A DNA stretch of 64,000 nucleotides from an uncultured Lentisphaeria bacterium (GTDB taxonomy: Bacteria; Fidelibacterota; UBA8477; JABMPR01): positions 54,872 through 118,871 of the forward strand of contig CAZOBQ010000002.1 in assembly GCA_964578155.1 (NCBI GenBank). The letters run 5' to 3'. Under the pieces are notes generated by a model. That model was not told where the DNA came from. It did no database searches and saw nothing but the letters and a program-made list of their open reading frames with translations. The translations under genes were made by a program, and so were the position numbers. Positions 3,142 to 50,969 of the stretch are shown one piece after another; within the stretch, counting starts at the first letter, position 1; the number at the start of each line of letters is the position of its first letter.

Positions 3142-3146
3142 GCGAT

Positions 3147-9514: not shown

Positions 9515-9524
9515 TCCTTATAGC

Positions 9525-11313: not shown

Positions 11314-12356
11314 GCTCGCACCTCCCCAAAGAAAGCAGGACGGGTATAACGGTTAATAAGTGGTGTAAAGGCATTCATGAGCAGGATGGAATACATCACG
11401 CCTTCAGGTAATCCCCCAAACAGACGAATAATGACCAAAATAAAGCCACAGCCAATTCCAAAGATCCAGGAACCACGAGCAGTCACAGGGGAGGTTACCA
11501 TATCTGTTGCCATAAAAAAGGCTCCCAGCATTAATCCACCGCTAAATAGTTGAAATACAGGTGAAGGATACGACTCGGGAGAGGAGAGCCAGAACAAACC
11601 GCCAAACACAAAGACGGAAAGCAAGAAACTGAGTGGGATACGCCAATCTGCATATTTTCGAATCAAGAGATATAATCCGCCTATAAGAATCGCGATAGCA
11701 GATGTCTCTCCAAGGGACCCGCTAATATCTCCAGTTAGGAGAGCGGGTAATTCGCTGGTCACTTTTTCAAACTTGAACAATCCAAGAGGTGTTGCTGCAG
11801 TTATTCCGTCAATATCAGCATAACGCGTTGTTGAAGGCCAGGTCCAGGTAGTCATGGGAACTGGGAAGCTAGCCTGAAGAAAGGCACGCCCTAGGAGAGC
11901 GGGGTTAAAAATGTTATACCCTAGACCGCCAAAGACATGTTTTCCGATAACAATGGCAAAAACAGATCCCAGAACAGCTCCTCCTATAGAAAATGAAGGA
12001 GGTAGGGTCAGAGCTAACAATAGTCCGGTAATGGCGGCGGAGCCATCCGGTATGGTTAGTGATTCTCCTTTTATCCTGTTTACAATAGCTTCAGATGCGA
12101 GAGCGGCAAGCACTGAACTCAGAATAATTCCCACTGCAGCCCACTGAAAATAGATGCTAGCCATGACCACAGCTGGGACCAGGGCAAGAATCACATTCCA
12201 CATGATGCTTGGAACTGAATCCTTAGCATGGAAATGAGGAGATGAGGCTAGAACCAGAGGCTGATCAGGTATATATAATTTAGCCCGAGGATCTTTTTTC
12301 TTCTTTTCGGGTTTGGGTGCTGATTCAGGCTGAGATGATAAGTTATTATCCGTCAT
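11310..12356 (-). CDS. rnfD: Rnf complex subunit D
   Basis: 348-aa polytopic protein: SSPHFH...GYNIFNPALLGRAFL...FFMATDMVTSP. Confidence 0.9.
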   Translation of the reverse strand: MTDNNLSSQPESAPKPEKKKKDPRAKLYIPDQPLVLASSPHFHAKDSVPSIMWNVILALVPAVVMASIYFQWAAVGIILSSVLAALASEAIVNRIKGESLTIPDGSAAITGLLLALTLPPSFSIGGAVLGSVFAIVIGKHVFGGLGYNIFNPALLGRAFLQASFPVPMTTWTWPSTTRYADIDGITAATPLGLFKFEKVTSELPALLTGDISGSLGETSAIAILIGGLYLLIRKYADWRIPLSFLLSVFVFGGLFWLSSPESYPSPVFQLFSGGLMLGAFFMATDMVTSPVTARGSWIFGIGCGFILVIIRLFGGLPEGVMYSILLMNAFTPLINRYTRPAFFGEVRA

Positions 12357-12367
12357 AGATACTCCGA

Positions 12368-13729
12368 CTAGACCTGAGCTTTAAGTTTGTTTTGTTTTTC
12401 AGTCACCTTGACTTTGCCCACTCTAATCCATTGCACAAGTGGAATTCCAGATGGGCAGACAAAAGCACAGGAGCCACATTCAATACAGTTAAATACTCCC
12501 CACGCTTTACAGTCATCGTATTGAGCTGTCTCTGCTAATCGTGATATTCGAGTTGGTACCAGATTCATGGGACACACGCTCACACAGGTACCACACTGGA
12601 TACAAGGATATTGCCTGGATTTCTGAAGTTGAGTTGATTCAAGACATACAATTCCCGAGGTGGCTTTTAGCGTAGGGACATTGAGGTCATACTGGGCTAA
12701 ACCCATCATAGGTCCACCCATGAAAACTTGGGCTGTCTCACCCTTAAGTCCACCACAGGCATCCACACACACCTTGAAAGGAGTGCCAACTCGGGCGACA
12801 ATATTTCCAGGTTCATTGATGGCATCACCGGTGACAGTCAGCATTCTTTGAATAAGTGGTTTACCTTCTACGACAGCCTCATAAACAGCCAGTGCTGTGG
12901 CGATGTTGTTAACCACAACGCCAACATCCATAGGTAATCCACCTGCAGGGACTTTGCGACCTAGTGCAGCATCGATAAGCATTTTCTCCGCACCTTGTGG
13001 GTACTTTACCTTTAAGGGTTGGACTTTAAAATTAAGATTTAAAGCTGTACTTCGTGATTCCATTAGGGTGATGGCATCAAGTTTATTGCTTTCGATACCT
13101 ACAATGCCTTGGTCAACACCGAGAATCTTCATCATAATAGCCATTCCGTTAAGAATGCGATCCGTATCCTCCAGCATGTTGCGGTGATCACAAGTAAGGA
13201 AGGGCTCACATTCACAGCCATTTAAAATGAAAGTGTCAATGGGCTTCTCTTTTGGTGGAGCCATTTTGACATGAGTAGGGAAAGCTGCCCCTCCAAGACC
13301 TACGATTCCAGCCTCGCGAACGAATTGACGAAGTGTACTCGCCTCCGTAGTTTTCCAGTCATCCGGAGTGTCGAGTAACGCCCAGTTGTCTTCCTCTCCC
13401 TCTCGTTTGATGTGGATCATGGGAACTTTGCCACCAAGGGGATGAGGAAAAGATGCTACAGCATGTACCTTGCCTGTAATAGAAGCGTGAATTGGGCTAG
13501 AAACAAAAGCTTTGGTGTCAGCAATTTTTTGGCCGGTTTTTACAAAATCACCTTTTTCGACTAAAGCCTCACAAGGAGCCCCAATATGTTGCTGAAGGGG
13601 GATAAAGACCTCATCTGGCGCTGGTAAATCGCGTGATGCAATGTTACAGCTCAAGTTTTTAAATTCGTCAGGGTGAACACCACGACGAAAAGTGCTAACA
13701 GAGAGTGTGCTGGATTCAACCATAAGCAA
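12368..13729 (-). CDS. rnfC: Rnf complex subunit C
   Basis: 453 aa: GIVGLGGAAFPTHVK, NGCECEPFLT, and two 4Fe-4S motifs CIQCGTCVSVCP / CIECGSCAFVCP. The listed start is TTG. An in-frame ATG at 13723 is the alternative start. Confidence 0.9.
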   Translation of the reverse strand: MLMVESSTLSVSTFRRGVHPDEFKNLSCNIASRDLPAPDEVFIPLQQHIGAPCEALVEKGDFVKTGQKIADTKAFVSSPIHASITGKVHAVASFPHPLGGKVPMIHIKREGEEDNWALLDTPDDWKTTEASTLRQFVREAGIVGLGGAAFPTHVKMAPPKEKPIDTFILNGCECEPFLTCDHRNMLEDTDRILNGMAIMMKILGVDQGIVGIESNKLDAITLMESRSTALNLNFKVQPLKVKYPQGAEKMLIDAALGRKVPAGGLPMDVGVVVNNIATALAVYEAVVEGKPLIQRMLTVTGDAINEPGNIVARVGTPFKVCVDACGGLKGETAQVFMGGPMMGLAQYDLNVPTLKATSGIVCLESTQLQKSRQYPCIQCGTCVSVCPMNLVPTRISRLAETAQYDDCKAWGVFNCIECGSCAFVCPSGIPLVQWIRVGKVKVTEKQNKLKAQV

Positions 13730-14031: not shown

Positions 14032-14328
14032 TTAGACCTTTCTATCTCGGTATGGGATCGAAAGCTTCTTGAGTTTCTGAGTGTTACCAAAAATATAGGC
14101 CTCTTTTTTACCTCTACTCCACTCTTTGATCTGTTTCTCAAGAACAATTGCGTCTTGTATATCCATATCATCTGAATTCCAGATAAGCTTCACTGGACGA
14201 CGCGAATGCGTATATCCTCTAAAGTGACCACATTCATGCTGGAAAAGTCTTTGTTCAAGGTTGCTGGTTACCCCAGTGTAGAACGAACTATCTGAACATA
14301 TCAGTATATAAACAATACCTGTTTTCAT
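14032..14328 (-). CDS. GIY-YIG nuclease-domain protein (paralog 3)
   Basis: 98 aa: GIVYILICSDSSFYTGVTSNLEQRLFQH...LEKQIKEWSRGKK. Confidence 0.85.
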   Translation of the reverse strand: MKTGIVYILICSDSSFYTGVTSNLEQRLFQHECGHFRGYTHSRRPVKLIWNSDDMDIQDAIVLEKQIKEWSRGKKEAYIFGNTQKLKKLSIPYRDRKV

Positions 14329-31326: not shown

Positions 31327-31351
31327 GCCTTAGGTTCAGCCCAAAAACAGC

Positions 31352-31387
31352 GGAGGGAAGGACAGTCCGGGCGGACGCCTTCCCTCC
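31352..31387 (-). terminator. Rho-independent terminator of the motA-motB-fliF-like-fliG-like operon
   Basis: 10-bp GC-rich stem ggagggaagg/ccttccctcc with a 16-nt loop. On the minus strand it is followed by gctgttttt. It lies between convergent upp and the fliG-like gene. Confidence 0.65.
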
Positions 31388-31433
31388 CATCTCGCTAGTG
31401 CAGGACAGCGGAGATATCTTTGTCAGTAATTAA

Positions 31434-32363
31434 CTACTCGATATAGTCGGCCTCAGCAAACTCTTCGATACTGAATTCATTATTTGGGTCAGCGTCCATT
31501 TGGAGTATAAACTCAACAACTTTCTTTTGCGCTGCCTCTACCTGCTTACGAGAAACGGGTCCATCTTTCGGTTCATACATAGCCTGCTTTTTCTGGGGCA
31601 GACTCTCGAGAACACGATCGGTTAACTCCTGCTCCTGTCCTTTAAGGGCGAGAGCGACATCATCCAGATCCAGACTATTAAAAACGTCTCGGAGTAAACC
31701 ATCCGAAAGCATGGAAACATTATCAAAAGTGAAGTGATGCTTCTTCACCTCTTTTGCCAGTTCGGGATCCTCTTCGCCTAGATAGTCCAGAAACTGCCTC
31801 TGTTCCTTAGCGTCCATAGTTGCCAGAAGACCAGCCATGGCTTTACCGCCACCTTCTTGATATTCTGCATGGGATGGAATTTGCTTTGCTTTTTCTCTAT
31901 ATTCGGAAGCGACCTCCAGGACAGCCTGAAGCGGAACATCTTTGATCTTACCTAGATCAATCATAGCCTCAGTCCGAATCTCTGTTGGCAATCTCTGAAG
32001 TAATTTACCCTGCATTTCCAAAGGAAGTTGGGCCAATAAAATGGAGATCGATCTTGTAGGTTCAGATCTTATAAGATAAGCAAGTTGAACCTCAGACATG
32101 CCTTCAAGAAAGGCGAATGGTTGTGAGGTGGCTTCTTTGGATTCATCTGAAAATTTCTTAGACATAAAGGAAAAATAAAATTCCTCCAGAATCGATTTTT
32201 TTGAGTCAAAGGAAACATTCTGAACCTGAGGAATACGCTGACGAACAGCAACGATCTCTTCATTGCTTAGATTGGGGAAAAGCTGTCCCGCCAATCGAGC
32301 GCCTAATATGTCAAAGAGGACGGCGGCCTTATCAATTCCGGCCAATTTTTTTTGATCAGCCAT
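31434..32363 (-). CDS. fliG: FliG-like rotor/switch protein (divergent)
   Basis: 309 aa. The N-terminus GIDKAAVLFDILG...LSNEEIVAV is FliG_N-like. The middle region ...ILLAQLPLEMQGKLLQRLPTEIR is FliG_M-like. A GGG linker leads to HFTFDNV (the MFxF position), then ALALKG...LESLPQKK...GPVSRKQVEAAQKKVV, which is FliG_C-like. It has a 1-nt overlap with the upstream gene. Confidence 0.7.
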   Translation of the reverse strand: MADQKKLAGIDKAAVLFDILGARLAGQLFPNLSNEEIVAVRQRIPQVQNVSFDSKKSILEEFYFSFMSKKFSDESKEATSQPFAFLEGMSEVQLAYLIRSEPTRSISILLAQLPLEMQGKLLQRLPTEIRTEAMIDLGKIKDVPLQAVLEVASEYREKAKQIPSHAEYQEGGGKAMAGLLATMDAKEQRQFLDYLGEEDPELAKEVKKHHFTFDNVSMLSDGLLRDVFNSLDLDDVALALKGQEQELTDRVLESLPQKKQAMYEPKDGPVSRKQVEAAQKKVVEFILQMDADPNNEFSIEEFAEADYIE

Positions 32364-34225
32364 TATTTCTTCCCCTTCTTTTTGTTTTTACCATTTGACT
32401 CTTCTTCCTCGGCTTCTTCTTCAACTTCTTCAGCTTCACCAGTATCCTGAAGCCATTCTTTCACAATGTTTGAGGCAGACCCTGGTTTGCTTACTGCAAG
32501 TGAAACTACGGATTTCTTAATACTATCAACTTCACCAATTAATTCATGATCAATCTCAGCTTCTTCTTCAACAGCCACAGGCTCAGATGTTGTCTCGGGA
32601 ACAGGTTCAGAAAAGCCATCACCATCACTTGGAATACCTGCTAACTCTGGACCACGGCGACGACCACCCATCATAGCTCCTAGTAGAATTGCCAGCGCAA
32701 CCAACACTGCAGCACCAATGAGCATGAGAGGAAAGAGATTACCATCATCTTCAGGTATTACAGAAGCCTGGAGTCTTTGACTTTCCAGTTCATCCATCTG
32801 TTGCTTAAGCTTGTCTTCTCTATCACGGATTGCAGACTTTTCTGCTTCTCTTCGTTTTTGCTCGAGCTCCAGTTTGAGTCTCTGTTCCTCTTCCAGGTCT
32901 ACAGCAGACAACTGGTTTTTCAAGTCATCTAACTGCTCTGTTAGGAGAGTCAAGCGAAGAGAGTCTTCACGTAAACGTTCTTTCGCTTGCTGCTGCTGAG
33001 CATCAAACATTTGCTGGCGTTCTTCAGTCAGCCGTTCTTGTTCTTGTTGACGTAGATCAGTTAATTCTTGTTCCCGCTGACGGATACGATCTTCTTCTCG
33101 CTGGCGAATAGAGGCAAGTTCTTCCTCGTGGGCTTTTTGCTTTTCTAGTTCTTGCTCTCGCAAGCGAGCCATCTCTGCATCCTGAGTTTCTTTGTTAACT
33201 TGCTCCTGACGCATGCGTTCTTGCTCGCCTTCAAGTTCTTTAATCCGCTGGTTTTCAGTTTCTTCCTTCTGGCGAGCTTCGATGGCTGTCATTTTTTCAG
33301 CAATCGATTTTAGCAGAATCTGTTCAGTGTCCGGCTTGACATCTTTTGCTCCCTGAAAATCAGCAGTCATAACTTGTAATTTATCACCCCGTTCTCTATT
33401 GAAGTGGGAGGCAACCATAGTGATGGTTCGAATGTTTTCAATTATTTTTGGAGAAATTGGATCTTCTAAGATAACCGTCAGTTCCATTTTCTTTACGCGT
33501 AAGGATGGGCCAGTACTGCTGGCGACAGTATGTCTTGCTAAGCTTGGAGATTCTGCTTCAGCATATTCAATGAGTGCCTGGCTCTTATTAGCGTTAGTCT
33601 CAGACTCTAAAGCTTCTTCGGTGATAACTTCATTTTCATCCAAGGAAAGAATAGCTTCAGCTGCAACGGAGGTATCAATTTCGCCATCCATTGGAGCAAC
33701 ACGGTCAAGCTCTTCAGCGGCTGCGTAGATCACATCATTGCTTGACTCTTCCTCTGCAAGCACCTCTTCTTCATACATTTCGAATCCCGGTGATTGTATT
33801 CCAGGAAAACCGGGGATGTCAGAAGGCATGCTGGATTTAATAGGTCGTTTCTTGAGGACAGTCTTTGTCTTTCTATTTCCAGTACTTATGCCGGTAGGTG
33901 AGCTTGATCCAGTCATGCTTGCTTGCGGTGAATATATATTATCCCCAAGCTCTTGCTGGGCCTGTGCGCCAGGTGTTTCATAGATTGTAGTGTATTTCTG
34001 GGCTGGCGTTGCTTCCATAATGACATTAACATTTACGATAAAGTTTTCATGACGTAGAATGCGATAGACAGCATCACTTACACGCTGATTTATCGTATTT
34101 TCCAACAGAATTTTCTGCGAGATTAATTCTCTATTCGTGTCGGGAAGGGCAAACACCTGTGATATTAGCATCAGGGAGGTAATTACGGTTCCTGTCATGA
34201 TGTGTTTTAATGTTGGATACTTCAT
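32363..34225 (-). CDS. FliF-like (MS-ring-like) bitopic membrane protein with a long charged helical insertion
   Basis: N-terminal hydrophobic segment. VKKMELTVILEDP...IENIRTITMVASHFNRERGDKLQVMTADF resembles the end of the FliF periplasmic ring domain. About 185 aa of E/R/K/Q-rich helix follow, then a TM segment (LFPLMLIGAAVLVALAILLGAMMGG). The acidic tail with SLAVSKPGSASNIVKEWLQD resembles the FliG-binding C-terminus of FliF. I prefer ATG 34225, which has GAGGAG 6 nt upstream, over the listed GTG 34258. Confidence 0.45.
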   Translation of the reverse strand: MKYPTLKHIMTGTVITSLMLISQVFALPDTNRELISQKILLENTINQRVSDAVYRILRHENFIVNVNVIMEATPAQKYTTIYETPGAQAQQELGDNIYSPQASMTGSSSPTGISTGNRKTKTVLKKRPIKSSMPSDIPGFPGIQSPGFEMYEEEVLAEEESSNDVIYAAAEELDRVAPMDGEIDTSVAAEAILSLDENEVITEEALESETNANKSQALIEYAEAESPSLARHTVASSTGPSLRVKKMELTVILEDPISPKIIENIRTITMVASHFNRERGDKLQVMTADFQGAKDVKPDTEQILLKSIAEKMTAIEARQKEETENQRIKELEGEQERMRQEQVNKETQDAEMARLREQELEKQKAHEEELASIRQREEDRIRQREQELTDLRQQEQERLTEERQQMFDAQQQQAKERLREDSLRLTLLTEQLDDLKNQLSAVDLEEEQRLKLELEQKRREAEKSAIRDREDKLKQQMDELESQRLQASVIPEDDGNLFPLMLIGAAVLVALAILLGAMMGGRRRGPELAGIPSDGDGFSEPVPETTSEPVAVEEEAEIDHELIGEVDSIKKSVVSLAVSKPGSASNIVKEWLQDTGEAEEVEEEAEEEESNGKNKKKGKK

Positions 34226-34257
34226 AAGCTTCTCCTCGACTCCAGCGATGGTTTTCA

Positions 34258-34902
34258 CTAACCCATCGTTAGAAATGTTATGTCAACGCGTCTGTTTTTT
34301 GCGCGATTCTCTGCTGTGTCATTCGCAACTTTAGGAACGGTATCTCCAAAGCCAATTGCTCTGAACTTATCAGGCGCAATACCCTGCGATGTCAGGTAAG
34401 TTATTACAGCACTTGCTCGAGAGGCTGATAGCTCCCAGTTTGATGGAAACTGCACAGACCGCATGGGGACATTGTCCGTGTGTCCTTCCACAGCAATAGC
34501 GTAGGTAGCTTTTTCCATTGTGCTAACCAGCTTTACCAAAAATTGTTTGATTGAGTAGGATAAATCTGCGCTACCCACACTGAAGGCCAGATCACTGGCA
34601 ATCTCAAGGGTAACCCCTCGTGCATCCATGCGCACCTTAACCTGTTGATCAAGTTGCTGTTCTTTAACCAGCTTTTTAACCTCTTGATTAATCTGGCTCA
34701 GAGATACTTTTTTTGACTTTTTCCTGGAGCCCTGGTGTTCGCCCATAGACTGACCGAATTGTTCCAGTTTCACGGGGTCAATAGTAGACATAGCGAATAG
34801 CAACACAAAGAAAGTCATGAGTAAGGTCATCATATCAGCGAAAGTGGTAAGCCATCCGCCCTCTTCTGACTGTTTTTCTTTTTTCTTTGGTGCTACAGGC
34901 AT
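34258..34902 (-). CDS. motB: MotB/PomB-type stator protein with an OmpA-like peptidoglycan-binding domain
   Basis: WLTTFADMMTLLMTFFVLLFAMS contains the conserved TM Asp. The C-terminus is VEGHTDNVP...NWELSASRASAV...NRRVDI. Confidence 0.85.
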   Translation of the reverse strand: MPVAPKKKEKQSEEGGWLTTFADMMTLLMTFFVLLFAMSTIDPVKLEQFGQSMGEHQGSRKKSKKVSLSQINQEVKKLVKEQQLDQQVKVRMDARGVTLEIASDLAFSVGSADLSYSIKQFLVKLVSTMEKATYAIAVEGHTDNVPMRSVQFPSNWELSASRASAVITYLTSQGIAPDKFRAIGFGDTVPKVANDTAENRAKNRRVDITFLTMG

Positions 34903-34907
34903 ACTTT

Positions 34908-35711
34908 TTAGTCCTCGTAAACCCTATCGCGTGGTGCCAGATAAGAGTTGAGAAATTCACGCACTAAAATGGGATGCTTTTTAACCTTAAGCATGACAAT
35001 CCCATCAATAATCATATTCTGAGTTATATTTCTTTTATCAATTCGCGAGCGCAGCTTAGCTGCTACAGGAAGAAAGAATAAATTAGCAAACAAAGCCCCA
35101 TAAAAAGTTGTGATCAAGGCAACACCCATAGCTTGTCCAAGTTTCGCAGCAGGATCCGAATCTCCTCCATCCCCAGGACCAGCCCCCATTGCAAACAACA
35201 TGGCAACAAGACCTACTAAGGTTCCAACCATACCAAAAGCAGGAGAGAAGACACCCATGGTTTTGAATACGTTGGCTTCAGCATCTTCCCTCAATTCACG
35301 ATTGACAACCCGGGTTTCCATAATGCTTCGAATGTCTTCTTCAGGAAGTCCATCAACGATCATCTGGACGCCATCCTTTAAGAACCAATCATTAATACCA
35401 CCAACCGCTTTTTCCAGATCCGCGGTTCCTTTACGTGCTACAGTGGCTAACTCTACTAATTCTCGCAAGGTGTCTGCGTCTTCATGGTTTTCACCTTTGA
35501 AGACAGCCCACAAATTTGTATAGAGCGATAATACCTCTTTCACAGGGAATGCCATGGCAGTGGCTGCAATCGTACCACCTAACACGATCATAAGTGATTG
35601 TGCGTCAACAAAAGTCATAACTCCGTTAGGCAGGGCGGAAGAAACTCCAAATACTGCATACCCAATCAAACCTGACCCGAACAATAATCCTATAATGGTT
35701 GCAAAATCCAT
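34908..35711 (-). CDS. motA: MotA/PomA-type stator proton-channel protein (4 TM)
   Basis: MDFATIIGLL..., LMIVLGGTIAA, a cytoplasmic loop of about 100 aa, PAFGMVGTLVGLV, ALITTFYGALFANLFFLPVAAKL, and a C-terminal IIDGIVMLKVKKHPILVREFLNSYL. Confidence 0.85.
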   Translation of the reverse strand: MDFATIIGLLFGSGLIGYAVFGVSSALPNGVMTFVDAQSLMIVLGGTIAATAMAFPVKEVLSLYTNLWAVFKGENHEDADTLRELVELATVARKGTADLEKAVGGINDWFLKDGVQMIVDGLPEEDIRSIMETRVVNRELREDAEANVFKTMGVFSPAFGMVGTLVGLVAMLFAMGAGPGDGGDSDPAAKLGQAMGVALITTFYGALFANLFFLPVAAKLRSRIDKRNITQNMIIDGIVMLKVKKHPILVREFLNSYLAPRDRVYED

Positions 35712-35728
35712 AAGTAAGTCCTTTTATT

Positions 35729-37102
35729 CTATTCCTTTATAGAAACTGCCGAGCGCAGTCGGTTTTCATTCAAAGCCCTGAGAATATTTCGTACCTCATC
35801 ATAACTAGGATCGATCTGTAGGGCAATATTCCAGTTGATCGTCGCGCGATCAATTTGATTCAATTTATAATAGATGGACCCTCTACGGGCATAAGCCAGC
35901 GCCAGGTTGGGATTAAACTCTAAGGCCTGGTTAATCTCGCTGAGAGCATCTTCATATTCTTCATTGTAAAACAAGCGTAGAGAGCGTGAAAGGTGCTTCA
36001 GGGCTTGATTAATCTGTGCATCTGATACATGACGAGCAAGCTGCAGTGCAGCAACAGAGTCTTCAACCACCTGGTTGCGTTGTTCAAGCTGCTCCACCAT
36101 ACGATTCAAGTGTTCTATCTCAGTAGCCGACATTCTCAAGGAATCTCTTAAGACTAGTAATTGTTGTTCCTGCGCTTTATGCCAGCTGGAATCAATAACA
36201 GTACGCATGGGAACGCCATCTTCAGTAACGACGCCGGCTATTTTGATACCACCACGTTGTTTACTGGCTGAAGATTTCACCCGTGGTAAGTAGTAATCCA
36301 GACCAATTCCAACTCCTGCAGGATTCTCACGATCCTCTCCTAAGTAAGGTAGGTTTTGGATATTTGAAAAGCCGAGAGTAATCTTGTATTCTTGGGTTAA
36401 TGGAATTTTAATACCGGTATTGATCCCTGTTCCATCAAACTCCAGAATAAAATCCATACCGCCACGATCGGCAAAAATGTTTGTATTCAAAAGCAAGCCA
36501 AGGAAGAAGCCCATACTGTTATCCTTGGCGGTCTTAACTGTATCGAATGGTGTTGTTGTACTGTCTACAGTCAGGTCATATTTACCAAAGTTTGAACCAT
36601 ATCTACCTGAACCTACCCCGAGGTAAGTCTTTAGGCTATATCCGGAAAAACTATTCTCACGGGTAAGCAATATGTAGTAAGATAGATTTCGAACGCGTTC
36701 TTCGATATCCGTTGTGTCCGAGGTGCCTGTTGTAAAGCTGATATCATTCACACCAATACCGACTGCAGTTTCACCATAGGTCAGCAGACGATTTTGGATA
36801 TGCAGCGCCAACTCAGCTTCATTATTATTTGAACCTGATTGAATGGCTGACATTCCCAGTCGAAAATCACGAGTAATATCAGTCTCTAGAAAGGCTCCCT
36901 TATTAAAGAATTCACTCTCTAAAGCTCCACGAGTCGACTGTCCTGCGACACCAATCCTCAGCAGATACGGTTCACTGTAAAGACTGGATGTTGGAATGTG
37001 CATCATGGGACCGGGACGTGAATAATTCAATGCTGTCTGAGCATTGACAGCCAGTCCACTTGCCGCAATAATTAGTATCAATAATAGTCTAATAGTTTTC
37101 AT
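35729..37102 (-). CDS. Secreted beta-rich (YjbH/DUF940-like?) protein with a C-terminal coiled coil and TPR repeats
   Basis: Signal peptide. The N-terminal ~270 aa are beta-rich (GPMMHIPTSSL..., AVGIGVNDISF, YLGVGSGRYG). A heptad-rich segment follows, then TPR (YEDALSEINQALEFNPNLALAYARRGSIYYKLNQIDRA). Confidence 0.4.
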   Translation of the reverse strand: MKTIRLLLILIIAASGLAVNAQTALNYSRPGPMMHIPTSSLYSEPYLLRIGVAGQSTRGALESEFFNKGAFLETDITRDFRLGMSAIQSGSNNNEAELALHIQNRLLTYGETAVGIGVNDISFTTGTSDTTDIEERVRNLSYYILLTRENSFSGYSLKTYLGVGSGRYGSNFGKYDLTVDSTTTPFDTVKTAKDNSMGFFLGLLLNTNIFADRGGMDFILEFDGTGINTGIKIPLTQEYKITLGFSNIQNLPYLGEDRENPAGVGIGLDYYLPRVKSSASKQRGGIKIAGVVTEDGVPMRTVIDSSWHKAQEQQLLVLRDSLRMSATEIEHLNRMVEQLEQRNQVVEDSVAALQLARHVSDAQINQALKHLSRSLRLFYNEEYEDALSEINQALEFNPNLALAYARRGSIYYKLNQIDRATINWNIALQIDPSYDEVRNILRALNENRLRSAVSIKE

Positions 37103-37136
37103 TTGATGATCTCCGGGATCAGCCTTTCATCTCACT

Positions 37137-38012
37137 TTATTCCTGCACAAAACGCTTAGCCAGGGTTAAATACTCACTACCAGGATGTCTGGAAACCAGC
37201 TCTTGAAAGGCTAGTTTTGCTTCTGGAAGACGATCTTTGTTCTTAAATGCCAAACCAATCATGACTAAGGCGTCATCAAGCTTATCTGAATGCTGATAGC
37301 GTTGTACTTGCTCCAGTGTACTAATTGCCTGATCATACAAACCTTTTTCAAAATAACAGCGACCAACCCAATACTGGGCATTTGCTTGAAGGGTGACATC
37401 CGTACTTCTATTAACGATGGTGTTAAACTCATCAATCGCCTGATAATAATATTGCTGATGAAACTTGGTCAAGCCTGTTCTATAGGCAGCCTGCTCTTCA
37501 GCGGTAGATAATTTTGGTTCAGTTTGCACTTGAGCTAATGGTTGAGTAGTAACAGTTGTGTTTTTCCAGGGTGTATGTAATTCAGCAAAAACACTATCTG
37601 AACTTGCTGGCCTGGAAGGGTCAAATTGTGTGGCAGCTTGTGCTGGCTTGGACTGTTGATCCACTAAATTAGTGATTCGGGTAGATAAGAGTGCCTTATC
37701 CGTTTCCCCGGCTGCTTTGATTTGAGTAATCTCAGTTTGCAAGCTATCAATGACCATGGTTTGGTGTCTTAAACGAATCTCAGTTTCAACCAGTTTATGT
37801 TGATAGCGGTCCAGTTCTTCTTCCAACTCTAATTGTTCCTGTGACAATGCACCTTGAAGGGTGTTTACCTGCAGGGTGTCTAGAGCAGTTTTATTGGTAT
37901 CTTCGATTACCAGTCCAATATCATAAAACAAACCACTATTGCCTGTTTGTCCAAGGAGCAAGGTCCCGGAGAACAGAAGAATAAAGGCCAATGTGGTTTT
38001 ATGAGTCAGCAT
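37137..38012 (-). CDS. Periplasmic coiled-coil plus CpoB/YbgF-like TPR protein
   Basis: Signal peptide and a coiled-coil N-terminal half. The C-terminus is AYRTGLTKFHQQYYYQAIDEFNTIV...ANAQYWVGRCYFEKGLYDQAI...DDALVMIGLAF, which is a CpoB-type pattern. Confidence 0.55.
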   Translation of the reverse strand: MLTHKTTLAFILLFSGTLLLGQTGNSGLFYDIGLVIEDTNKTALDTLQVNTLQGALSQEQLELEEELDRYQHKLVETEIRLRHQTMVIDSLQTEITQIKAAGETDKALLSTRITNLVDQQSKPAQAATQFDPSRPASSDSVFAELHTPWKNTTVTTQPLAQVQTEPKLSTAEEQAAYRTGLTKFHQQYYYQAIDEFNTIVNRSTDVTLQANAQYWVGRCYFEKGLYDQAISTLEQVQRYQHSDKLDDALVMIGLAFKNKDRLPEAKLAFQELVSRHPGSEYLTLAKRFVQE

Positions 38013-38014
38013 GT

Positions 38015-38980
38015 CTATTTCCGTTGATTCCCTTTTAAGAAATCATGGGCTTGTAAAATCAGTTCGCTCTCTGGATAATCCAGGATAAAGCGATTCATTG
38101 TTTCTCTCGCTTTCAGGTAGCGTCCGATCTGCTGATAACTAATAGCAATTTTAAATAATGCATGATCACTTTTGTTGTTTTCCGCAAAAGCAAAAACCTT
38201 TTCAAATTCTCGTATGGCAGACTCAAAATCCTCGAGTGAGTAAAAACATTCACCAATCCAATATTGAGCATTGTCAGCATAGGCGCCTTGTGGCTCACGT
38301 TCTATGAGCACCCGGAAGTCCTGTATGGATTCGAGATACTCATTATTAAAATATTGATTTAAGGCATCATTATAAGCCATGCGGTAGTCTGCATTAAAGG
38401 CATATCCGTGGGCGACAGGTGGGGCCGCCATTTGAGGTTCTTCAGTCAAAACGGGGTCGTCTTTTTTAACTGGTAGCTCAACAAGAGGCTCTGGTTGGCG
38501 GGAAGCAGCTGGCTTTTCTTCAGCCATTTCTACTAACTTAACTTCTGTATTTGCTATTATAGCAAGTTGTTCGATCTGCATTTCCAATGAATCATTAAGC
38601 AGCAACAGGTCTTTCATGCCAACCTTTAAAGAATCGATCTCGCGAATAAGGACGTAGATGTTTCCACGTAGATTGATGATATCCGGGTCTCTGGGAGCAG
38701 ACACAACTTCGATGACTGGCTCCTCAGCTTTCTCTTCAAGCCGAGCTTGATAGACAACAATCTGAGAATCCATGACAGCAATGCTGGTTTTCAACTGTTC
38801 CACTTCTAGCCTGGATTCACGCAGCTTAACAACTTCAGCGGAAAGCGCTTTCATTTGGGACTGCATTTTCATCTGCTCGATATTCGCAGCAGGAGTCGCA
38901 GCTTCTTTTGGGGTACAAGCCGTGAGACCCCACAGAGCAATAGCTAGGATAGAAACTTTTGCTGTGTTTTTAAATATCAT
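38015..38980 (-). CDS. Lipoprotein with a coiled coil plus CpoB/YbgF-like TPR domain
   Basis: Starting at ATG 38980 gives MIFKNTAKVSILAIALWGLTAC with a lipobox. A coiled coil follows. The C-terminus is DNAQYWIGECFYSLEDFESAIREFEKV...HALFKIAISY. It overlaps the upstream gene by 11 nt. Confidence 0.55.
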   Translation of the reverse strand: MIFKNTAKVSILAIALWGLTACTPKEAATPAANIEQMKMQSQMKALSAEVVKLRESRLEVEQLKTSIAVMDSQIVVYQARLEEKAEEPVIEVVSAPRDPDIINLRGNIYVLIREIDSLKVGMKDLLLLNDSLEMQIEQLAIIANTEVKLVEMAEEKPAASRQPEPLVELPVKKDDPVLTEEPQMAAPPVAHGYAFNADYRMAYNDALNQYFNNEYLESIQDFRVLIEREPQGAYADNAQYWIGECFYSLEDFESAIREFEKVFAFAENNKSDHALFKIAISYQQIGRYLKARETMNRFILDYPESELILQAHDFLKGNQRK

Positions 38981-39962
38981 GCTCTTCCCAGTCAATGGAA
39001 TAAGAATAACCAATGAATGAACCAAAAGATTTAGGAATGTAGAGTTCAAACTCGCCAGATGCTCCAGGAAATAAGGAGGTGTCTGTATTGACACCGCTGG
39101 AAAAGACGTGATGTGAGCCCTTGACAAAAGCAGTCAGCTCGCGGGTGTCACCACTCCAATTGATCCTGAATAGAAAATTTACTTTAACAAAATCAGCGCG
39201 ACGACCACCAATGTTCTTTACTACACCAGAAAGAATGGTGTTACCACTTCTATCTTTGCGCTCTCTAATGCTACCGGAAAGAACCACATTGCCCGTATAT
39301 TTATTCTGCTGAGAGGCTCCCTTAACATCCTGAGTCCCGGACATGCCAGCTCTTGAGTTGTTAACATTCATAGGAGCACCGCCACCTGCCCTACTTGGCT
39401 CGCTGACAGCAGGAGCATTAGGATCAGTGGGAACATTGTCTACAATTCGAAGAACTTGATCACGAGACACAGTGAGTACACCGATCAATGTTTTAATCTG
39501 GATATTCTTTTTATCCTGATCAATCACATCACCAAATATTTTTGTGCCGTTCTCTAAATGTACTTCTTTACTATATATACTTAAGGGATTTGTCCAAACT
39601 TCACTTTGAGTCTGAAGCTCGGTTAATTTTTTCTTGACGTACTTTAATTCAGCTGCCATTCGCTTGATCTCATAATTGATCTCGCTAGCAACAAATTCTG
39701 AAGATCCACTTTGATCCGCAGCTTTGTTTTTGAGCTGATCTAGATTATAGATCAGGTTGTCAGCTTGTTCTCCACTTTGCCAGGCTGATTCATCTGAGGT
39801 ATTAGCTTCTACCCCTGCTGTCTCAGCACGATCTACAGAGTCCGTTTTTGTGGCAGAATCTTCCCAGGATTCTTCAGGGGATGACTTTCCGCCAAACATT
39901 GAACACTGTACAATAGTCAAGGTTAGAGCCAATAACAGTACTTGTATGCCATATTGCTTCAT
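38970..39962 (-). CDS. Lipoprotein of unknown function (first gene of the motor-like operon)
   Basis: Starting at ATG 39962 gives MKQYGIQVLLLALTLTIVQC with a lipobox. It has an acidic linker, a short coiled coil, and a C-terminal beta-sandwich-like domain (..VVKNIGGRRADFVKVNF...GASGEFELYIP). The FELYIP motif is reminiscent of FxLYD domains, from memory only. Confidence 0.4.
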   Translation of the reverse strand: MKQYGIQVLLLALTLTIVQCSMFGGKSSPEESWEDSATKTDSVDRAETAGVEANTSDESAWQSGEQADNLIYNLDQLKNKAADQSGSSEFVASEINYEIKRMAAELKYVKKKLTELQTQSEVWTNPLSIYSKEVHLENGTKIFGDVIDQDKKNIQIKTLIGVLTVSRDQVLRIVDNVPTDPNAPAVSEPSRAGGGAPMNVNNSRAGMSGTQDVKGASQQNKYTGNVVLSGSIRERKDRSGNTILSGVVKNIGGRRADFVKVNFLFRINWSGDTRELTAFVKGSHHVFSSGVNTDTSLFPGASGEFELYIPKSFGSFIGYSYSIDWEEHDI

Positions 39963-40038
39963 ACGCAGCCTCTTCCGACTTAACATCGCTTCCAGTTTTA
40001 ATACGGTTATGTATCTGTCCTGCACCGTATTCGTCTAG

Positions 40039-40067
40039 AATTTAGGGGCTTTTTAAAATCTTGTCAA
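40039..40067 (-). promoter_or_regulatory. Putative sigma70-type promoter of the 8-gene motor-like operon
   Basis: On the minus strand: TTGACA (40067-40062), a 17-nt spacer, then TAAATT (40044-40039). It lies about 70 nt upstream of ATG 39962. Confidence 0.35.
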
Positions 40068-43817: not shown

Positions 43818-46337
43818 TCAGCTTCCTGATGTGTCTTCCTCTCCATCAAAGATGTCTTTTTGCTCAACTGTAACAGGATCATCATCTGCAGGACCTGATT
43901 CTGCAGGATCTTTTTCTTCCTGGACTCTAGTCACGGCTGCAATAGAATCACCTTCATCCAGTCTGATCAGTTTGACTCCCTGAGTATTTCGACCAATGCT
44001 GCGAATAGAAGCAACAGGTTGACGAATAAGAACACCACGACTGGTGATGATCATTAGGTCGTCACTATCTACAACTTCTAGCAATGAAACCATCTTACCA
44101 ACCTTTGGTGTGGTTTTGATGGTGATAATTCCTTTACCAGCGCGGTTCTGAACGCGATAGTTGATCACCTCGGTACGTTTGCCATAACCATGCTCTGAAA
44201 CGGCTAGAACGGTACCTTCACGTCGCACAACGATCATACCTACAACCTGGTCATCATCTCCCTTCAGCTCGATACCTTTAACACCCATTGTCTTGCGACC
44301 TGTTGGGCGGATATTGGTTTCGCTAAAGCGAATGGACATTCCGTTATGTGTACCCAGAATTATGTCATTTTCACCATTGGTGATCTGAGCATCGATGAGA
44401 TAATCATCGTCACGAATATCGATGGCAAAAATGCCACCCTTCATCGGTCTGCTGTATGCAGTGAGTACTGTTTTCTTGACCAGACCTTTAGCTGTGGCCA
44501 TGGTTATAAATAGATCCTCTGCGTAATCCCGAACAGCAATATAAGCCTGAACATTCTCTCCCTGGTCTACCTGTAAGAGGTTGATCAGAGCACGACCACG
44601 AGTGGCTTTACCAGCCTGAGGAATCTCATGTACACGTAACCAGTGGCACTTACCGCGATCAGTGAAGAACAAGATATAATCATGGGTAGAAGCCGTGAAG
44701 AGATGTTCAATAAAGTCTTCATCGCGAGCTTTTGCTCCAGCAGATCCTCGACCTCCCCGGTTCTGGCGACGGTATCCGCTCACAGGATATCGCTTAATGA
44801 AGCCATTGTGGGTAATCGTGATCACCATTTCTTCCTCAGCGATCATATCTTCAATTGTAAAGTCCTTGGCATCGGGGATGATTTCAGTACGTCTTTCATC
44901 GCCATACCGTTCCTGAACTTCTCGCAATTCAGTTTTGATGATGTCCATTCTGAGGCCACGATTATTAAGAATCTCATTCAAGCGAGCAATTACCTTGAGG
45001 ACTTCAGTGTATTCATCAATAATTTTTTGACGTTCAAGCCCGGTTAACTTTTGTAGACGCATATCCAAGATGGCTTGAGATTGAATCTCGCTCAATTCGA
45101 ATTTGGAGATTAAGGCTGCTTTAGCTTCTTTGGGGTTTTTTGAACCTCGAATAGTCTTGATAATAGCATCCAGATTATCCAGCGCAATTTTTAAGCCTTC
45201 TAAAATATGAGCACGAGCCTCAGCTTCTTTTAATTCAAACTGAGTCCGCTTAACCACAACCTCATGCCGGAATTTAATGAATTCAGCAATGACCTCTTTT
45301 AGGGTCAGTACTTTGGGTAAGCCGTCAACTAGTGCCAGCATGATGACCCCAAAGGTGTCCTGCATCTGGGTGTGTTTGTAAAGTAGATTAAGAACAACCT
45401 CCGGTACCACATCCCGTTTTAGCTCAATGACCAGACGGATTCCATCTTTGTCTGATTCGTCACGAATATCGGATATGCCTTCGACTTTTTTGGCGCGAAC
45501 CAGCATGACGATCTTCTCGATGAGAGACGATTTGTTGACCTGATAAGGAATCTCAGTAATAATGAGGCTGAAGCGACCATTCTTGCGTTCTTCAATATTA
45601 GCGCGGGCGCGAACCGTGATTTTTCCACGACCGGTCTCATAAGCTTCTTTAATACCTGCAGCGCCGTAGATAACAGCAGCAGTAGGGAAGTCAGGACCTT
45701 TAACATGTTGCATGAGTTCAGCAACTTCCACTTCAGGATTATCGATCTGAGTCACGATAGCATCAATCACCTCATTCATATTGTGAGGTGGGATATTGGT
45801 TGCCATTCCAACAGCAATACCGCTGGAACCATTAAGTAGAAGGTTTGGGATTACAGCCGCCAGAACTGAAGGCTCCATAAGGCTTTCATCAAAGTTAGGC
45901 GTGAATTTTACGGTCTCTTTTTCAAGATCTTTTAACATCTCGCTTGAGATACGTTTCATACGGGCTTCTGTATAACGCATGGCAGCAGCACTATCACCAT
46001 CGATGGATCCGAAGTTACCCTGGCCATCAACAAGGGGATAGCGTAGCGAAAATTCCTGGGTCATACGCACCATTGAATCGTAAACGGCAGAATCACCGTG
46101 AGGGTGATACTTACCCATGACATCTCCAACAATACGGGCGCTTTTACGATAAGATCTGTTATAGCCCACACCCAGTTCCATCATTCCATAAAGAATGCGA
46201 CGATGAACAGGTTTAAGTCCATCTCGTACATCAGGCAGGGCACGTGAAACAATAACCGACATGGAATAATCCATGTACGATTTTTTCATTTCCTCTTCGA
46301 TGGAGGTGTTTAGAATATTCTGTCTCTGTATTTCCAA
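43818..46337 (-). CDS. gyrA: DNA gyrase subunit A
   Basis: [27 protein letters not shown], and C-terminal beta-pinwheel repeats. Confidence 0.97.
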
Positions 46338-46384
46338 CTCAGTACCTCTTTATTCTATCTAAATTTTCAATAATTCTATTATCT

Positions 46385-48595
<2,211 letters not shown>

Positions 48596-48603
<8 letters not shown>

Positions 48604-49714
48604 CGACTTGTATCTTTCCTGCATCGATGATCTGGAGGGTGTCCCCCTCAATATTGAGGCCATGGTTTCGAAGGTCTGCCAGATCAGTTGCGGTAATAAA
48701 TATTTGGTGATCGCCCTGTAAACTTTCCACGATCATCATACTCCGTTTAACATCCAGTTCGGCAAAGAGATCATCCAGTAAGAAGACGGGCGGTTCATTT
48801 AGAAAGTTTTCTAAAAAGCGTCCTTCAGCAAATTTTATAGCAACCAGCACCAGCTTGTGCTCTCCTTGAGAGCCGAATTTACGCAGGTCTTTTGTGTCGA
48901 GAAAAAAGGTGAAGAGGTCTCGATGAGGACCTCGCGTGGTGGTGCCTTTGCGCATATCTTCTGCAAGAGAATCCTGGTAAGCTTGCCGATAGAGGTGCTC
49001 TGCATTTCCAGTAGTTACCCTCACGTTGGAGATGAAGGCCATCTTGAGAGATTTATCCTGTTCCAGCTCTGTATAAGCTTCATAAAGGATCTTTTTAAAC
49101 TCAGTGAGATGTTTGCTCCGTGCCTCATGCAGCCGGGCAGAAACGGAAGCTCGTTGATCATCAAGAGTTGACAGGAGAATTCTGTCTATGGCAACACCAT
49201 CATTGGCATGAGCTTGCAGCATGGCATTACGCTGTTTGAGAATCCGTGCATAGATCTGGAGCTTTTCCAGATAGGCAGGGTCAATTTGTGACAGGAGCTT
49301 ATTGAAGAACAGGCGTCTGATCTCAGGTGAACCAAAAGTGAGCGTACTGTCTTCAGGCGTTAGAGAAACCAGGGGAAACTTCCCAATGATCTGAGCCCGA
49401 CTATTCAGGTTTTTATTGTTAACACTCAACAGTTTCTTGCGAGAAGATTCAACCTTGAGCCTTACTTCATGATCAAGTCCGGTATGATCCGAAAAGAGTC
49501 CTTTAAGCTGATAGCCTGCTTGGCCATGTCGTGTCAGGTCGGAATCAAGTCGGGTTTTAAAGCTACGGGTGTAGCCCAAACTATGAATGGCCTCTAAAAG
49601 AGTGGTCTTTCCGGCACCATTTTCCCCGTGGAGAATATTGGTGTGCTGGCCAAAACTCATGGAAACCTGCTCGTATTTACGAAAGTTGATCATGGTAAGG
49701 GATTTAATCAGCAT
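48596..49714 (-). CDS. recF: DNA replication/repair protein RecF
   Basis: NFRKYE..., Walker A GENGAGKTTLLEAI, the signature SQGEHK and LLDDLFAELD. Confidence 0.95.
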
Positions 49715-49853
49715 GCCTGATGTGTGGATGGTTTTTTATTGTTTATCATACCGTATCTTTTAATAAATCATTTATACAAGCACACTTGCCTGTATCTATA
49801 TCCCGAGCTGTTGGAATTAGCTTAACGATCGGCTGTCCTGCAAAGAACTCCGA

Positions 49854-50969
49854 CTATCCTTGAAGCCTGATAGGCATCAAGAGCATTACTAATTCTTCCT
49901 TCTCTGCCTGAACTTCCGGCAAGATCAGTCCAGGACCGATCTCTGAGCCCAGCCTGAAGACCACACGATCAGTTTCTACATTCTTGAGCATGTCTTTCAG
50001 GTAAATAGAATTATATCCAAGCGTCAACTCTTCACCATCATATTCTGCCAGAACCTGCTCTTTAGCGCTTGTGCTAGCTTCAGGGTCTTCGGTAAATACT
50101 TCCAGATAACCAGGGTGAAGTTTCAGAGCAACTTGATGCGTTGTGCGGTTAGAGAAGATGGAAACACGTTTCACCGTAGTAACCAGATCAGCACTGGAAA
50201 GTGTGACTGTCTTATCATTAGTGGAGGGGATTACACTCCCATAATCTGGGTATTGTTCGTCAATTAGACGACTGAAAATCGTTGCGTTCTCAGTAGAGAT
50301 GCTAATATATTTTTCACCAACGGCCAAGTTGATGCTATCTCCATCATCTAGAAAAGACTGGATGAGGGATAAAAATTTTGGAGGAACAATGATGTTTGCC
50401 TCAAAGTCAGGTGAGGAGAAATCGCGGTTGCTATACTTCACCAATCGGTGACCATCAGTAGCAACGGCACGAATCATGTCTTTCTTTAGTTCAAAGAGAA
50501 CACCAAGCAGTGCTGGTTTGAGTTCATCTTTTGAAACAGCAAAGACAGTTTTTTCAACAGTTCTTTTTAGAACACTGGATTTGATTTCTAAACTACTGGC
50601 AGGACCGAGTTCAGGTGCTTCAGGGAAATCCAGAGCCGGACGACCAACGATCTTATAGGTTCCACCGGATGTAGACAGAGTAACGCGATTATCTTCAGTC
50701 CAGGCAAAGGTTAATTCTGTATCTGGTAGCTCATTCGTGATTTCCTGGAGTAAGCGAACCGGAAGTGCAACAGCTCCATCTTCATCACCGTTGACATCAA
50801 GCTTTAAGGTATAGGTAATTTCAATATCAGTGCTGCGCATGGAAAGAATGTTTCCCTGCACCGAAAAGAGAATGTGATTAAGTATGGGCATGGTGGAACG
50901 AGTTGGGCTAACGCGCGCAACTTTTTGCAAGCCGTGTAAAAGTGTTGATGAATCAACGGTAAATTGCAT
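49854..50969 (-). CDS. dnaN: DNA polymerase III beta sliding clamp
   Basis: 371 aa with the three-domain clamp pattern and a C-terminal LLMPIRL. Confidence 0.95.
   Translation of the reverse strand: MQFTVDSSTLLHGLQKVARVSPTRSTMPILNHILFSVQGNILSMRSTDIEITYTLKLDVNGDEDGAVALPVRLLQEITNELPDTELTFAWTEDNRVTLSTSGGTYKIVGRPALDFPEAPELGPASSLEIKSSVLKRTVEKTVFAVSKDELKPALLGVLFELKKDMIRAVATDGHRLVKYSNRDFSSPDFEANIIVPPKFLSLIQSFLDDGDSINLAVGEKYISISTENATIFSRLIDEQYPDYGSVIPSTNDKTVTLSSADLVTTVKRVSIFSNRTTHQVALKLHPGYLEVFTEDPEASTSAKEQVLAEYDGEELTLGYNSIYLKDMLKNVETDRVVFRLGSEIGPGLILPEVQAEKEELVMLLMPIRLQG

Follow-up and report, generated by a model that had tools for sequence, protein, structure and literature searches.

We describe an eight-gene operon in a 64,000-nucleotide stretch of DNA, hereafter the window (assembly GCA_964578155.1, contig CAZOBQ010000002.1, positions 54,872 to 118,871 of the forward strand), from an uncultured bacterium that is deposited under the name Lentisphaeria and placed by GTDB in the Fidelibacterota. 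The genes, labeled G1 to G8, encode MotA- and MotB-type stator subunits, FliF-like and FliG-like proteins, and four envelope proteins that carry no flagellar name. The features of the locus, in window coordinates, are as follows (TPR stands for tetratricopeptide repeat):

40039..40067, minus strand: candidate sigma-70-type promoter, TTGACA-17-TAAATT, 77 nt 5' of the G1 start

38970-39962, minus strand: G1, a lineage-specific lipoprotein of 330 amino acids

38015-38980, minus strand: G2, a lipoprotein of 321 amino acids with a coiled coil and a C-terminal CpoB/YbgF-like TPR

37137-38012, minus strand: G3, a secreted protein of 291 amino acids with a coiled coil and a CpoB/YbgF-like TPR

35729-37102, minus strand: G4, 457 amino acids, a predicted outer-membrane beta-barrel with a periplasmic helix and a TPR

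34908-35711, minus strand: G5, a MotA/PomA-type stator A subunit of 267 amino acids

34258-34902, minus strand: G6, a MotB-type stator B subunit of 214 amino acids

32363-34258, minus strand: G7, a reduced FliF of 631 amino acids (620 from the ATG at 34225)

31434-32363, minus strand: G8, a FliG of 309 amino acids with N, M, and C domains

31343..31388, minus strand: intrinsic-terminator-like hairpin and T-run, between the convergent genes G8 and upp

The open reading frames lie where the initial annotation had placed them, between 31434 and 39962, co-directional on the minus strand and tightly packed: from G1 to G8, the first two genes overlap by 11 nt (G1/G2), the next four junctions are gaps of 2, 34, 17, and 5 nt, and the last two are overlaps of 1 nt each. 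If G7 begins at the ATG at 34225, which is the gene callers' choice in locus L001, the overlap in front of it becomes a 32-nt gap. The same annotation, working by eye, had read the products as two lipoproteins (G1 and G2), two CpoB/YbgF-like coiled-coil/TPR proteins (G2 and G3), a secreted beta-rich protein with a coiled coil and a TPR that was possibly located in the outer membrane (G4), a MotA with four transmembrane (TM) segments, a MotB with a TM aspartate and an OmpA-like domain, a bitopic FliF-like protein, and a FliG-like protein; all of these assignments are reproduced by profiles or by structure.

G5 matches the Pfam family MotA_ExbB (PF01618) at E = 1.5e-25 and the PomA model of NCBIfam at E = 3e-51, and it aligns end-to-end with MotA of Clostridium sporogenes (E = 7e-42) and PomA of Vibrio (E = 3e-36). 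The protein has four TM segments, a full-length cytoplasmic torque loop, and a LITTFYG motif like that of PomA. Its partner G6 has a TM helix carrying Asp23, followed by a plug and an OmpA-like peptidoglycan-binding domain (Pfam MotB_plug, E = 3.6e-20; OmpA, E = 1.9e-19), and it matches the MotB chain 6ysf_A (E = 3e-35) with the channel aspartate aligned. Interface residues were examined in 69-81 orthologues, with FliG down to ~38% identical to that of the window: R93, K94, and E100 of MotA are invariant in 69/69, and D23 of MotB in 72/72. We take the R93/E100 region, in our own numbering, to be the counterpart of R90/E98 of E. coli. TolQ and ExbB reach only E = 0.029 and E = 0.032 for G5, against 3e-51 for PomA, so G5 is not of the TolQ/ExbB type; likewise G6, with a MotB plug and an OmpA domain instead, is not of the ExbD type. 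Judged by these matches, the pair is a flagellar-type (PomAB/MotAB-like) stator with a channel aspartate, a plug, and a peptidoglycan anchor.

G8 contains FliG_N, FliG_M, and FliG_C, all above the Pfam cut-offs, and matches Thermotoga FliG at E = 4e-25; against the FliG equivalog TIGR00207 it scores 137 bits, where the cut-off is 226.7. At the position of the FliM-docking EHPQ(R) motif G8 reads EPTR, and EHPQ is not conserved among the 81 sequences of its family, in which only the glutamate is invariant. The torque helix is divergent as well, reading LPQKKQAMYEP in 68/81 sequences, while four of its FliG residues (L255, P256, Q260, and E264) are invariant in 81/81 and K258/K259 are present in 68/81. 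One Marinimicrobia clade (13/81) has the motif LPKRTQIILED, which is closer to canonical FliG.

The FliF-like identity of G7 is weak from one sequence and, at the level of sequence profiles, solid once its orthologues are considered. By itself, G7 gives a weak match to PF08345 (YscJ_FliF_C, corresponding to the third ring-building motif, RBM3) at E = 0.005 in Pfam, and aligns to Vibrio FliF at E = 4 (phmmer against the PDB), which is not significant on its own, although in this alignment both the RGD motif and the C-terminal tail fall on the corresponding parts of FliF. We replaced these weak single-sequence searches with family profiles built from aligned orthologues of other species. PF08345 is matched by 16/17 members of the G7 family (best E = 1.1e-14), PF01514 (RBM1-RBM2, SctJ-like) by 0/17 at E <= 0.01, and a PDB search with the family profile picks up five different FliF sequences, matched in the RBM3 region (E = 1.8e-4 to 1e-2). 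Among these matches, that to Vibrio FliF (E = 7.7e-4) rests on RBM3, the tail alone not being significant; in the Vibrio FliF alignments, RGDKLQVMTADF falls on the RBM3 end and KKSVVSLAVSKPGSASNIVKEWLQD on the C-terminal FliG-binding segment. An AlphaFold2 (AF2) model of residues 36-310 has a predicted local distance difference test score (pLDDT) of 57.7, and a Foldseek search with it returns FliF in 8/9 top matches (best E = 0.018, probability 0.96); E-values of 0.018 and above are not significant alone, and we use them as supporting evidence only.

Read from its N-terminus, G7 begins with a signal peptide or first TM helix (residues 20-38), at most ~10 residues after which an RBM3/S-ring-type domain starts (~45-305), split by a variable insert and ending in RGDKLQVMTADF. 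An uninterrupted helical stretch of ~190 residues follows, free of proline and glycine (310-501; window 32760-33329), then a TM segment (508-526), a proline-rich cytoplasmic linker, the FliF-type FliG-binding tail KKSVVSLAVSKPGSASNIVKEWLQD, and an acidic and poly-lysine end. On this family-level reading, G7 is a FliF reduced to its RBM3 domain, one membrane anchor, and the FliG-binding tail, without RBM1/RBM2, which in FliF enclose the export gate. The length of the helical stretch that leads from RBM3 to the TM segment varies: it is ~190 residues in this clade and ~100-130 in other Marinimicrobia, and the stretch is nearly absent in fused versions of the protein elsewhere. Each lineage thus seems to have its own ring-membrane distance or hairpin size.

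The four remaining genes encode candidate partners in the envelope. G1 and G2 have a cysteine directly after the signal peptide (with the lipobox LTAC in G2), which makes them lipoproteins, and G3 and G4 have plain signal peptides. In G1, a helical segment is followed by a small beta domain (~125-182) and then, at the C-terminus, by a conserved beta-rich domain. G1 has no match to a Pfam family or to the PDB by profile; its similarity to the N-terminal domain of Leptospira LA_0442/LA_0875 (E = 1.7e-7) is below the cut-off. An extra N-terminal CarboxypepD_reg domain is present in 8/16 G1 orthologues, which come from other clades. G2 and G3 are paralogues (E = 2e-17), and both resemble YbgF (TIGR02795) at E ~1e-20, below its cut-off of 90.1 bits (2.6e-20 and 73 bits for G2; 5.4e-20 and 72 bits for G3). 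In addition, G3 matches CpoB (E = 8.7e-14), and G2 passes the Pfam cut-offs for TPR_6 and TPR_2, while its coiled coil weakly matches TolA_bind_tri.

G4 consists of a signal peptide, a predicted barrel (~46-273), a periplasmic helix of 75 residues (305-379), and a C-terminal TPR, in which the motif ARRGSIYYK is invariant in the orthologue alignment. Its AF2 model (mean pLDDT 70.8) shows ~14 strands, the 75-residue helix, and the TPR, and a Foldseek search of the strand region against the PDB retrieves FapF, NanC, OmpG, and autotransporter barrels at E ~2e-6 and probability 1.00, so that the beta-rich part is predicted from the model to be an outer-membrane beta-barrel. The predicted locations of G1-G4 are the periplasm and the outer membrane.

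The operon keeps together as a unit. The organism is a Marinimicrobium: the nearest relatives of its proteins are found in metagenome-assembled genomes (MAGs) of Candidatus Marinimicrobia/Neomarinimicrobiota/Fidelibacterota, and the identical locus also occurs on metagenome contigs of up to 721 kb. A scan of one genome per GTDB species yields 196 genomes encoding the FliG-like protein; the best 80 of these 196 are mostly titled Marinimicrobia, Neomarinimicrobiota, or Fidelibacterota MAGs and otherwise uncultured bacterium, FCB group, or Lentisphaeria, the last of which is probably a mis-assignment. Complete loci, by our definition, are those of other species with 7.2 kb or more of sequence upstream of the gene for the FliG-like protein; there are 59 of them. 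Synteny in related genomes, which the initial annotation had named as a check, is kept throughout: the same colinear gene set is found in 59/59 complete loci, the only variation being in the YbgF-like genes, of which there are two in 24/59, one in 35/59, and at least one in 59/59. The genes that flank the operon vary by clade (NUDIX hydrolase, methyltransferase, M32 peptidase, CoaBC, amidohydrolase), and a constant gene set between changing housekeeping flanks points to a self-contained unit. Marinimicrobia-type copies of FliG also occur under other names: P0019, P0041, and P0459 (loci L005, L010, and L016) are deposited as Anaerolineales, Lentisphaeria, and Candidatus Woesearchaeota, and a Woesearchaeales MAG is scored fliG = 1 in a published table (row Fu_MAG_26, PMC10359470). 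These off-taxon copies are likely mis-binned Marinimicrobia contigs.

In comparisons with species 82-87% identical in FliG, all eight genes have a nonsynonymous divergence (dN) of 0.04-0.25, and the synonymous divergence (dS) is saturated. Because synonymous sites are saturated while dN stays low, the genes are real, and, by this measure, all eight are under strong purifying selection. A reduced component set with a truncated FliF might also be what is left, functionless and decaying, of a lost flagellum, and we considered this reading. It is contradicted by the selection on all eight genes, by catalytic and interface residues that are invariant across clades ~40% identical, by a gene order intact in 59/59 loci, and by the conservation of four non-flagellar partner genes alongside the motor genes; we reject it and consider its chance of being right negligible.

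Related modules are present in other phyla. An exhaustive HMMER search, in which G8 was compared with 1.84 billion representative proteins, returns only 12 representative clusters at E <= 1e-30, and ordinary FliGs (~335 amino acids) begin near 1e-25. Mixed with ordinary FliGs among the top 150 matches are 32 proteins of 600-680 residues that have FliG as their C-terminal half. PF08345 is found in the N-terminal half of 6/15 long proteins scanned (E <= 0.02), in two of which it exceeds the Pfam cut-off (P0349, 2.8e-8; P0383, 7.2e-8), and the RBM3 profile of G7 matches 11/32 at E < 0.01 within a set of 149 sequences. In the fusions, a signal peptide is followed by an RBM3 that has the LPG(x)P and RGD motifs, by a single TM segment, and then by FliG. 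Such natural FliF-FliG fusions support a physical association between G7 and G8. Members of the long-protein family include P0320, P0323, P0328, P0330, P0345-P0349, P0358-P0365, P0383, and P0410.

Six genomic contexts of fusions (L086-L091) cover a GC content of 31-69%, and one of them is a MAG of the Saccharospirillaceae, a gammaproteobacterium. The fusions lie in small gene clusters, and no flagellar neighbor is found in any of the six. A G4-type TPR protein adjoins the fusion in 6/6 loci (G4 family profile, E = 1e-6 to 1e-18), and MotA and MotB are adjacent in L087, L090, and L091, though not on the short contigs L086, L088, and L089. Several fusions are adjoined by outer-membrane barrels, among them an OprF-like protein, a PorP/SprF barrel, and unnamed barrels ending in aromatic residues; in one related locus, the PorP/SprF barrel stands beside MotB. 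Two loci have giant adhesin-like neighbors, one of more than 3521 amino acids and one of 1798 amino acids with PKD, cadherin, Big_1, and DUF285 domains. YbgF-like genes were not found in these modules, and G1 has no homologue in them. In L088, an ExbB-ExbD-ExbD set (2030-3813) lies ~2 kb upstream of the TPR/FliF-FliG pair, with no MotAB adjacent. The L086 fusion (P0349) ends in a TPR, which we considered, and dropped, as evidence for a contact between the G4-type TPR and the rotor: no TM segment separates this TPR from FliG_C, and it would therefore be cytoplasmic.

How much of a flagellar motor is this? The operon shares with the flagellar motor core the stator families with their plug, TM aspartate, OmpA-like anchor, and MotA Arg/Glu pair, a three-domain FliG, and a FliF with RBM3 and a C-terminal FliG-binding tail. 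It differs in that its FliF lacks RBM1/RBM2 and has a helical insert of 100-190 residues between RBM3 and the membrane anchor, in that its FliG lacks EHPQ and has a shortened torque helix, in that no FliM/FliN, export apparatus, rod, hook, or filament genes are nearby, and in its partners, namely a barrel-TPR protein, CpoB-like proteins, and a novel lipoprotein. For the 64-kb window, the housekeeping flanks and the lack of other flagellar genes reported by the initial annotation are confirmed: no further flagellar family is on record for any of its genes, FliM/FliN, export, rod, hook, and filament families included.

The families of MotA, MotB, and FliG are nonetheless flagellar ones, and the genes could belong to an ordinary flagellar motor whose remaining regulon lies elsewhere in the genome, with the TPR and barrel proteins acting as stator scaffolds in the manner of MotX/MotY/FlgT or PflA/PflB; our gene survey of this organism covers the 64-kb window. 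Vibrio MotX/MotY/FlgT and Campylobacter/Helicobacter PflA/PflB include TPR or Sel1-type periplasmic proteins and OmpA-like domains that are encoded with MotAB-type stators or act on them, and such scaffolds assemble round a complete basal body with a rod and P/L-rings. The operon is like them in encoding TPR proteins and an OmpA-like domain with a MotAB-type stator, and no sequence relationship to G1-G4 was detected. TPR stator scaffolds are known from complex flagellar motors (for example, PMC12054838; see also PMC12222027).

What weighs against the flagellar reading comes from several sides. RBM1/RBM2 is missing from 17/17 G7 orthologues tested, and G8 lacks EHPQ and falls far under the FliG equivalog cut-off. 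In 10 Marinisomatota rows of supplementary file 4 of PMC10359470, for MAGs from oxygen-deficient zones that are 53-85% complete, fliG is present in 6/10 and fliM, fliNY, and cheA/B/R in 0/10, the six with fliG included, and a passage of the same paper calls the Marinisomatota-dominated narG and nrfA communities primarily non-motile. Fidelibacter multiformis, the sole isolate of the phylum, is non-motile (PMC11652737). Finally, the homologous module of the gammaproteobacterial MAG is a separate small operon. Membership in a flagellum fails on the RBM1/RBM2, EHPQ, and FliM/FliN evidence, and we regard ordinary flagellar motor genes as improbable; the alternative offered by the initial annotation, a very unusual flagellar stator-scaffold island, is unlikely.

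The partners of the operon invite comparison with ion-driven systems that work across the periplasm. Like Tol-Pal, the operon has an ion-driven motor of the 5:2 type in the inner membrane with a link to the outer membrane, a YbgF-type protein with a coiled coil and a TPR, and an OmpA-like domain that binds peptidoglycan; unlike Tol-Pal, it has MotAB instead of TolQR, lacks TolA/TolB/Pal, includes a FliF/FliG ring, and matches YbgF only below the cut-off. GldLM/PorLM, of the type IX secretion system (T9SS) and gliding, and AglRQS-Glt are ion-driven inner-membrane motors that act across the periplasm on outer-membrane or surface proteins; these systems involve TPR lipoproteins and outer-membrane barrels, and are not known to have a FliG/FliF rotor. 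What the related modules share with them is the PorP/SprF barrel, in one locus, and the giant adhesin-like proteins, in two. Searches of Pfam and NCBIfam give no match to GldL/GldM (PorL/PorM) among the eight proteins, TolQR-like subunits are absent as well, and the TPR region alone accounts for weak NCBIfam matches to PorW, PorE, and GltC, which stay far under the family cut-offs. Membership in Tol-Pal, GldLM/T9SS, or Agl-Glt was rejected because the defining motor subunits of these systems are lacking.

A transducer of the Tol-Pal type could nevertheless be built from other parts: MotAB would perform conformational work, the FliF/FliG ring would serve as a docking platform, and the output would pass through the CpoB/YbgF-like proteins to peptidoglycan and the outer membrane, in the service of envelope integrity or division. 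Two CpoB/YbgF-like proteins, one with the weak TolA_bind_tri match in its coiled coil, the OmpA-like peptidoglycan binder, the housekeeping context near dnaN, recF, gyrB, and gyrA, the presence of the operon wherever coverage of the locus suffices, in a phylum that is mostly planktonic, and a non-motile cultured relative all fit such a role. The stator, however, is of the MotAB/PomAB type (E ~0.03 for TolQ/ExbB, against 3e-51 for PomA), TolA, TolB, and Pal are matched by none of the eight proteins, the related modules of other phyla have no YbgF-like genes, and the charges of the torque helix together with the invariance of MotA R93/E100 are what a rotor-stator interface would lead one to expect. 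We see this type of transducer as a minority prospect.

We favor, and hold to be likely, the reading that the eight proteins form a non-flagellar machine that spans the envelope and has a flagellar rotor-stator engine as its base. A stand-alone, envelope-spanning, ion-driven, non-flagellar module was also the central proposal of the initial annotation, and it gains from the missing RBM1/RBM2 and EHPQ, the changing genomic contexts, the MAG table, and the modules of other phyla. In the mechanism that we propose, G7 would assemble into an S-ring-like ring, with a FliG ring on its cytoplasmic tails, and the flow of H+ or Na+ through peptidoglycan-anchored MotA5B2 units would turn MotA against FliG and hence the ring. 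The PomA-like LITTFYG motif and the Rnf complex encoded in the window would bear on the choice of ion. Torque would probably be passed through the periplasmic helical stalk of G7, 100-190 residues long, to G2/G3 and then to G4 and G1. With no RBM1/RBM2, export gate, rod, hook, or filament, the torque would stay within the envelope, and with no FliM/FliN switch, the motor would be free of chemotactic control.

As to the output, our best guess is that the machine would move or remodel a structure of the outer membrane or surface, as adhesin-transport or gliding-type systems do; a housekeeping role in envelope integrity would be nearly as likely in planktonic, non-motile cells. What lies next to the modules of other phyla suggests surface adhesins or T9SS-type cargo, whereas envelope maintenance is suggested by the CpoB-like proteins, by a presence that is universal in planktonic genomes, and by the housekeeping context. 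Taken a step further, the operon would represent an unrecognized class of envelope machine, in which a MotAB-driven FliG/FliF(RBM3) rotor with no type III export or axial structure delivers torque to periplasmic and outer-membrane partners, universal in Marinimicrobia/SAR406 and present as fusions elsewhere, and either an exapted engine or a survivor from before the export apparatus; for this fuller proposal, we put the chances slightly above even.

Several points weigh against this reading. Rotation, ring formation, and the contact between G7 and G8 are derived from homology and gene fusions. The torque helix of G8 is shortened and contains a proline, so the interface may work differently from that of flagella. 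The AF2 model of the G7 domain is of low confidence, with weak Foldseek E-values, and the N-terminus of G7 may be a cleaved signal peptide or a TM helix, on which the position of the ring depends. The absence of flagellar genes covers the 64-kb window and 10 incomplete MAGs scored for fliG, fliM, and fliN. Lastly, the link to adhesins or gliding comes from neighbors in 3/6 loci of other phyla and not from the Marinimicrobia operon.

No description of a stand-alone FliG/FliF/MotAB module was found in the literature searched, which included work on Marinimicrobia flagella and motility and on FliG-like proteins. The nearest published oddity is the FliF-FliG fusion of the Chlamydiaceae, in which a shortened FliF is joined to the M region of FliG only (Bergeron 2016, PMC4768692); the chlamydial flagellar genes are FliF, FliL, and FlhA only, and a link to the injectisome has been proposed (PMC4768692). 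Common to both cases is a shortened FliF joined to FliG in bacteria thought to be non-flagellated. The chlamydial protein, however, keeps an RBM2-like domain and lacks the SpoIIIAG-like RBM3, the reverse of G7.

The signals that bracket the operon fare differently. The promoter candidate put forward by the initial annotation, TTGACA-17-TAAATT, is borne out in sequence and position and matches the consensus at 10/12 positions, but it does no better than chance: 18 promoter-like sites were found in the region against 17.0 expected from shuffled sequence, which is no excess. Because the frequency of sites equals that of the shuffles, the match carries no weight by itself, and its position is the sole argument in its favor; the sigma-70 consensus, moreover, may not be that of this phylum. 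The GC-rich hairpin and T-run that had been proposed to close the operon stand up, since GGGAGGGAAGG...CCTTCCCTCC, followed by GCUGUUUUU, folds at -30.2 kcal/mol (z = -2.46). Our terminator scan missed this hairpin, probably because it accepts only simple hairpins with a loop of 3-8 nt.

On the upp side of the operon, the window encodes Rnf, trp genes, LptD, RarA, and upp, and on the other side NUDIX, ssb, DivIVA, gyrA/B, recF, dnaN, priA, and metG. The gyrA-gyrB-DciA-recF-dnaN block (43818-50969) is ~4-12 kb from the operon, which on this account is probably near the replication origin. A complete rnfCDGEAB cluster (8205-13729) lies ~20 kb away and would fit a sodium- or proton-based energy economy. 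Three small GIY-YIG genes (PF01541) are found within 13 kb amid housekeeping genes (~1310-1511, 7902-8225, and 14032-14328) and may be mobile, homing-endonuclease-like elements.

The rotor-stator pair, in which MotAB drives FliG on the MS-ring, is regarded as belonging to flagella alone, and the latest phylogeny of MotAB names the clade that bears a plug and an OmpA domain "flagellar ion transporters" (PMC12505986). This operon challenges that assumption by pairing a flagellar-type stator with a minimal rotor in an apparently non-flagellated phylum. As a practical matter, matches to fliG, motA, and motB in Marinimicrobia MAGs should not be taken as evidence of motility, and the proteins of such modules can be expressed and imaged. 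For the origin of the flagellum, the operon would offer a natural rotor-stator module uncoupled from the type III export apparatus, in which an RBM3-only FliF, FliF-FliG fusions, and the lack of a C-ring are intermediates of the kind that origin scenarios need. If the machine rotates, it would be a new use of the flagellar engine and, given the abundance of SAR406 in the ocean interior, possibly a common one there.

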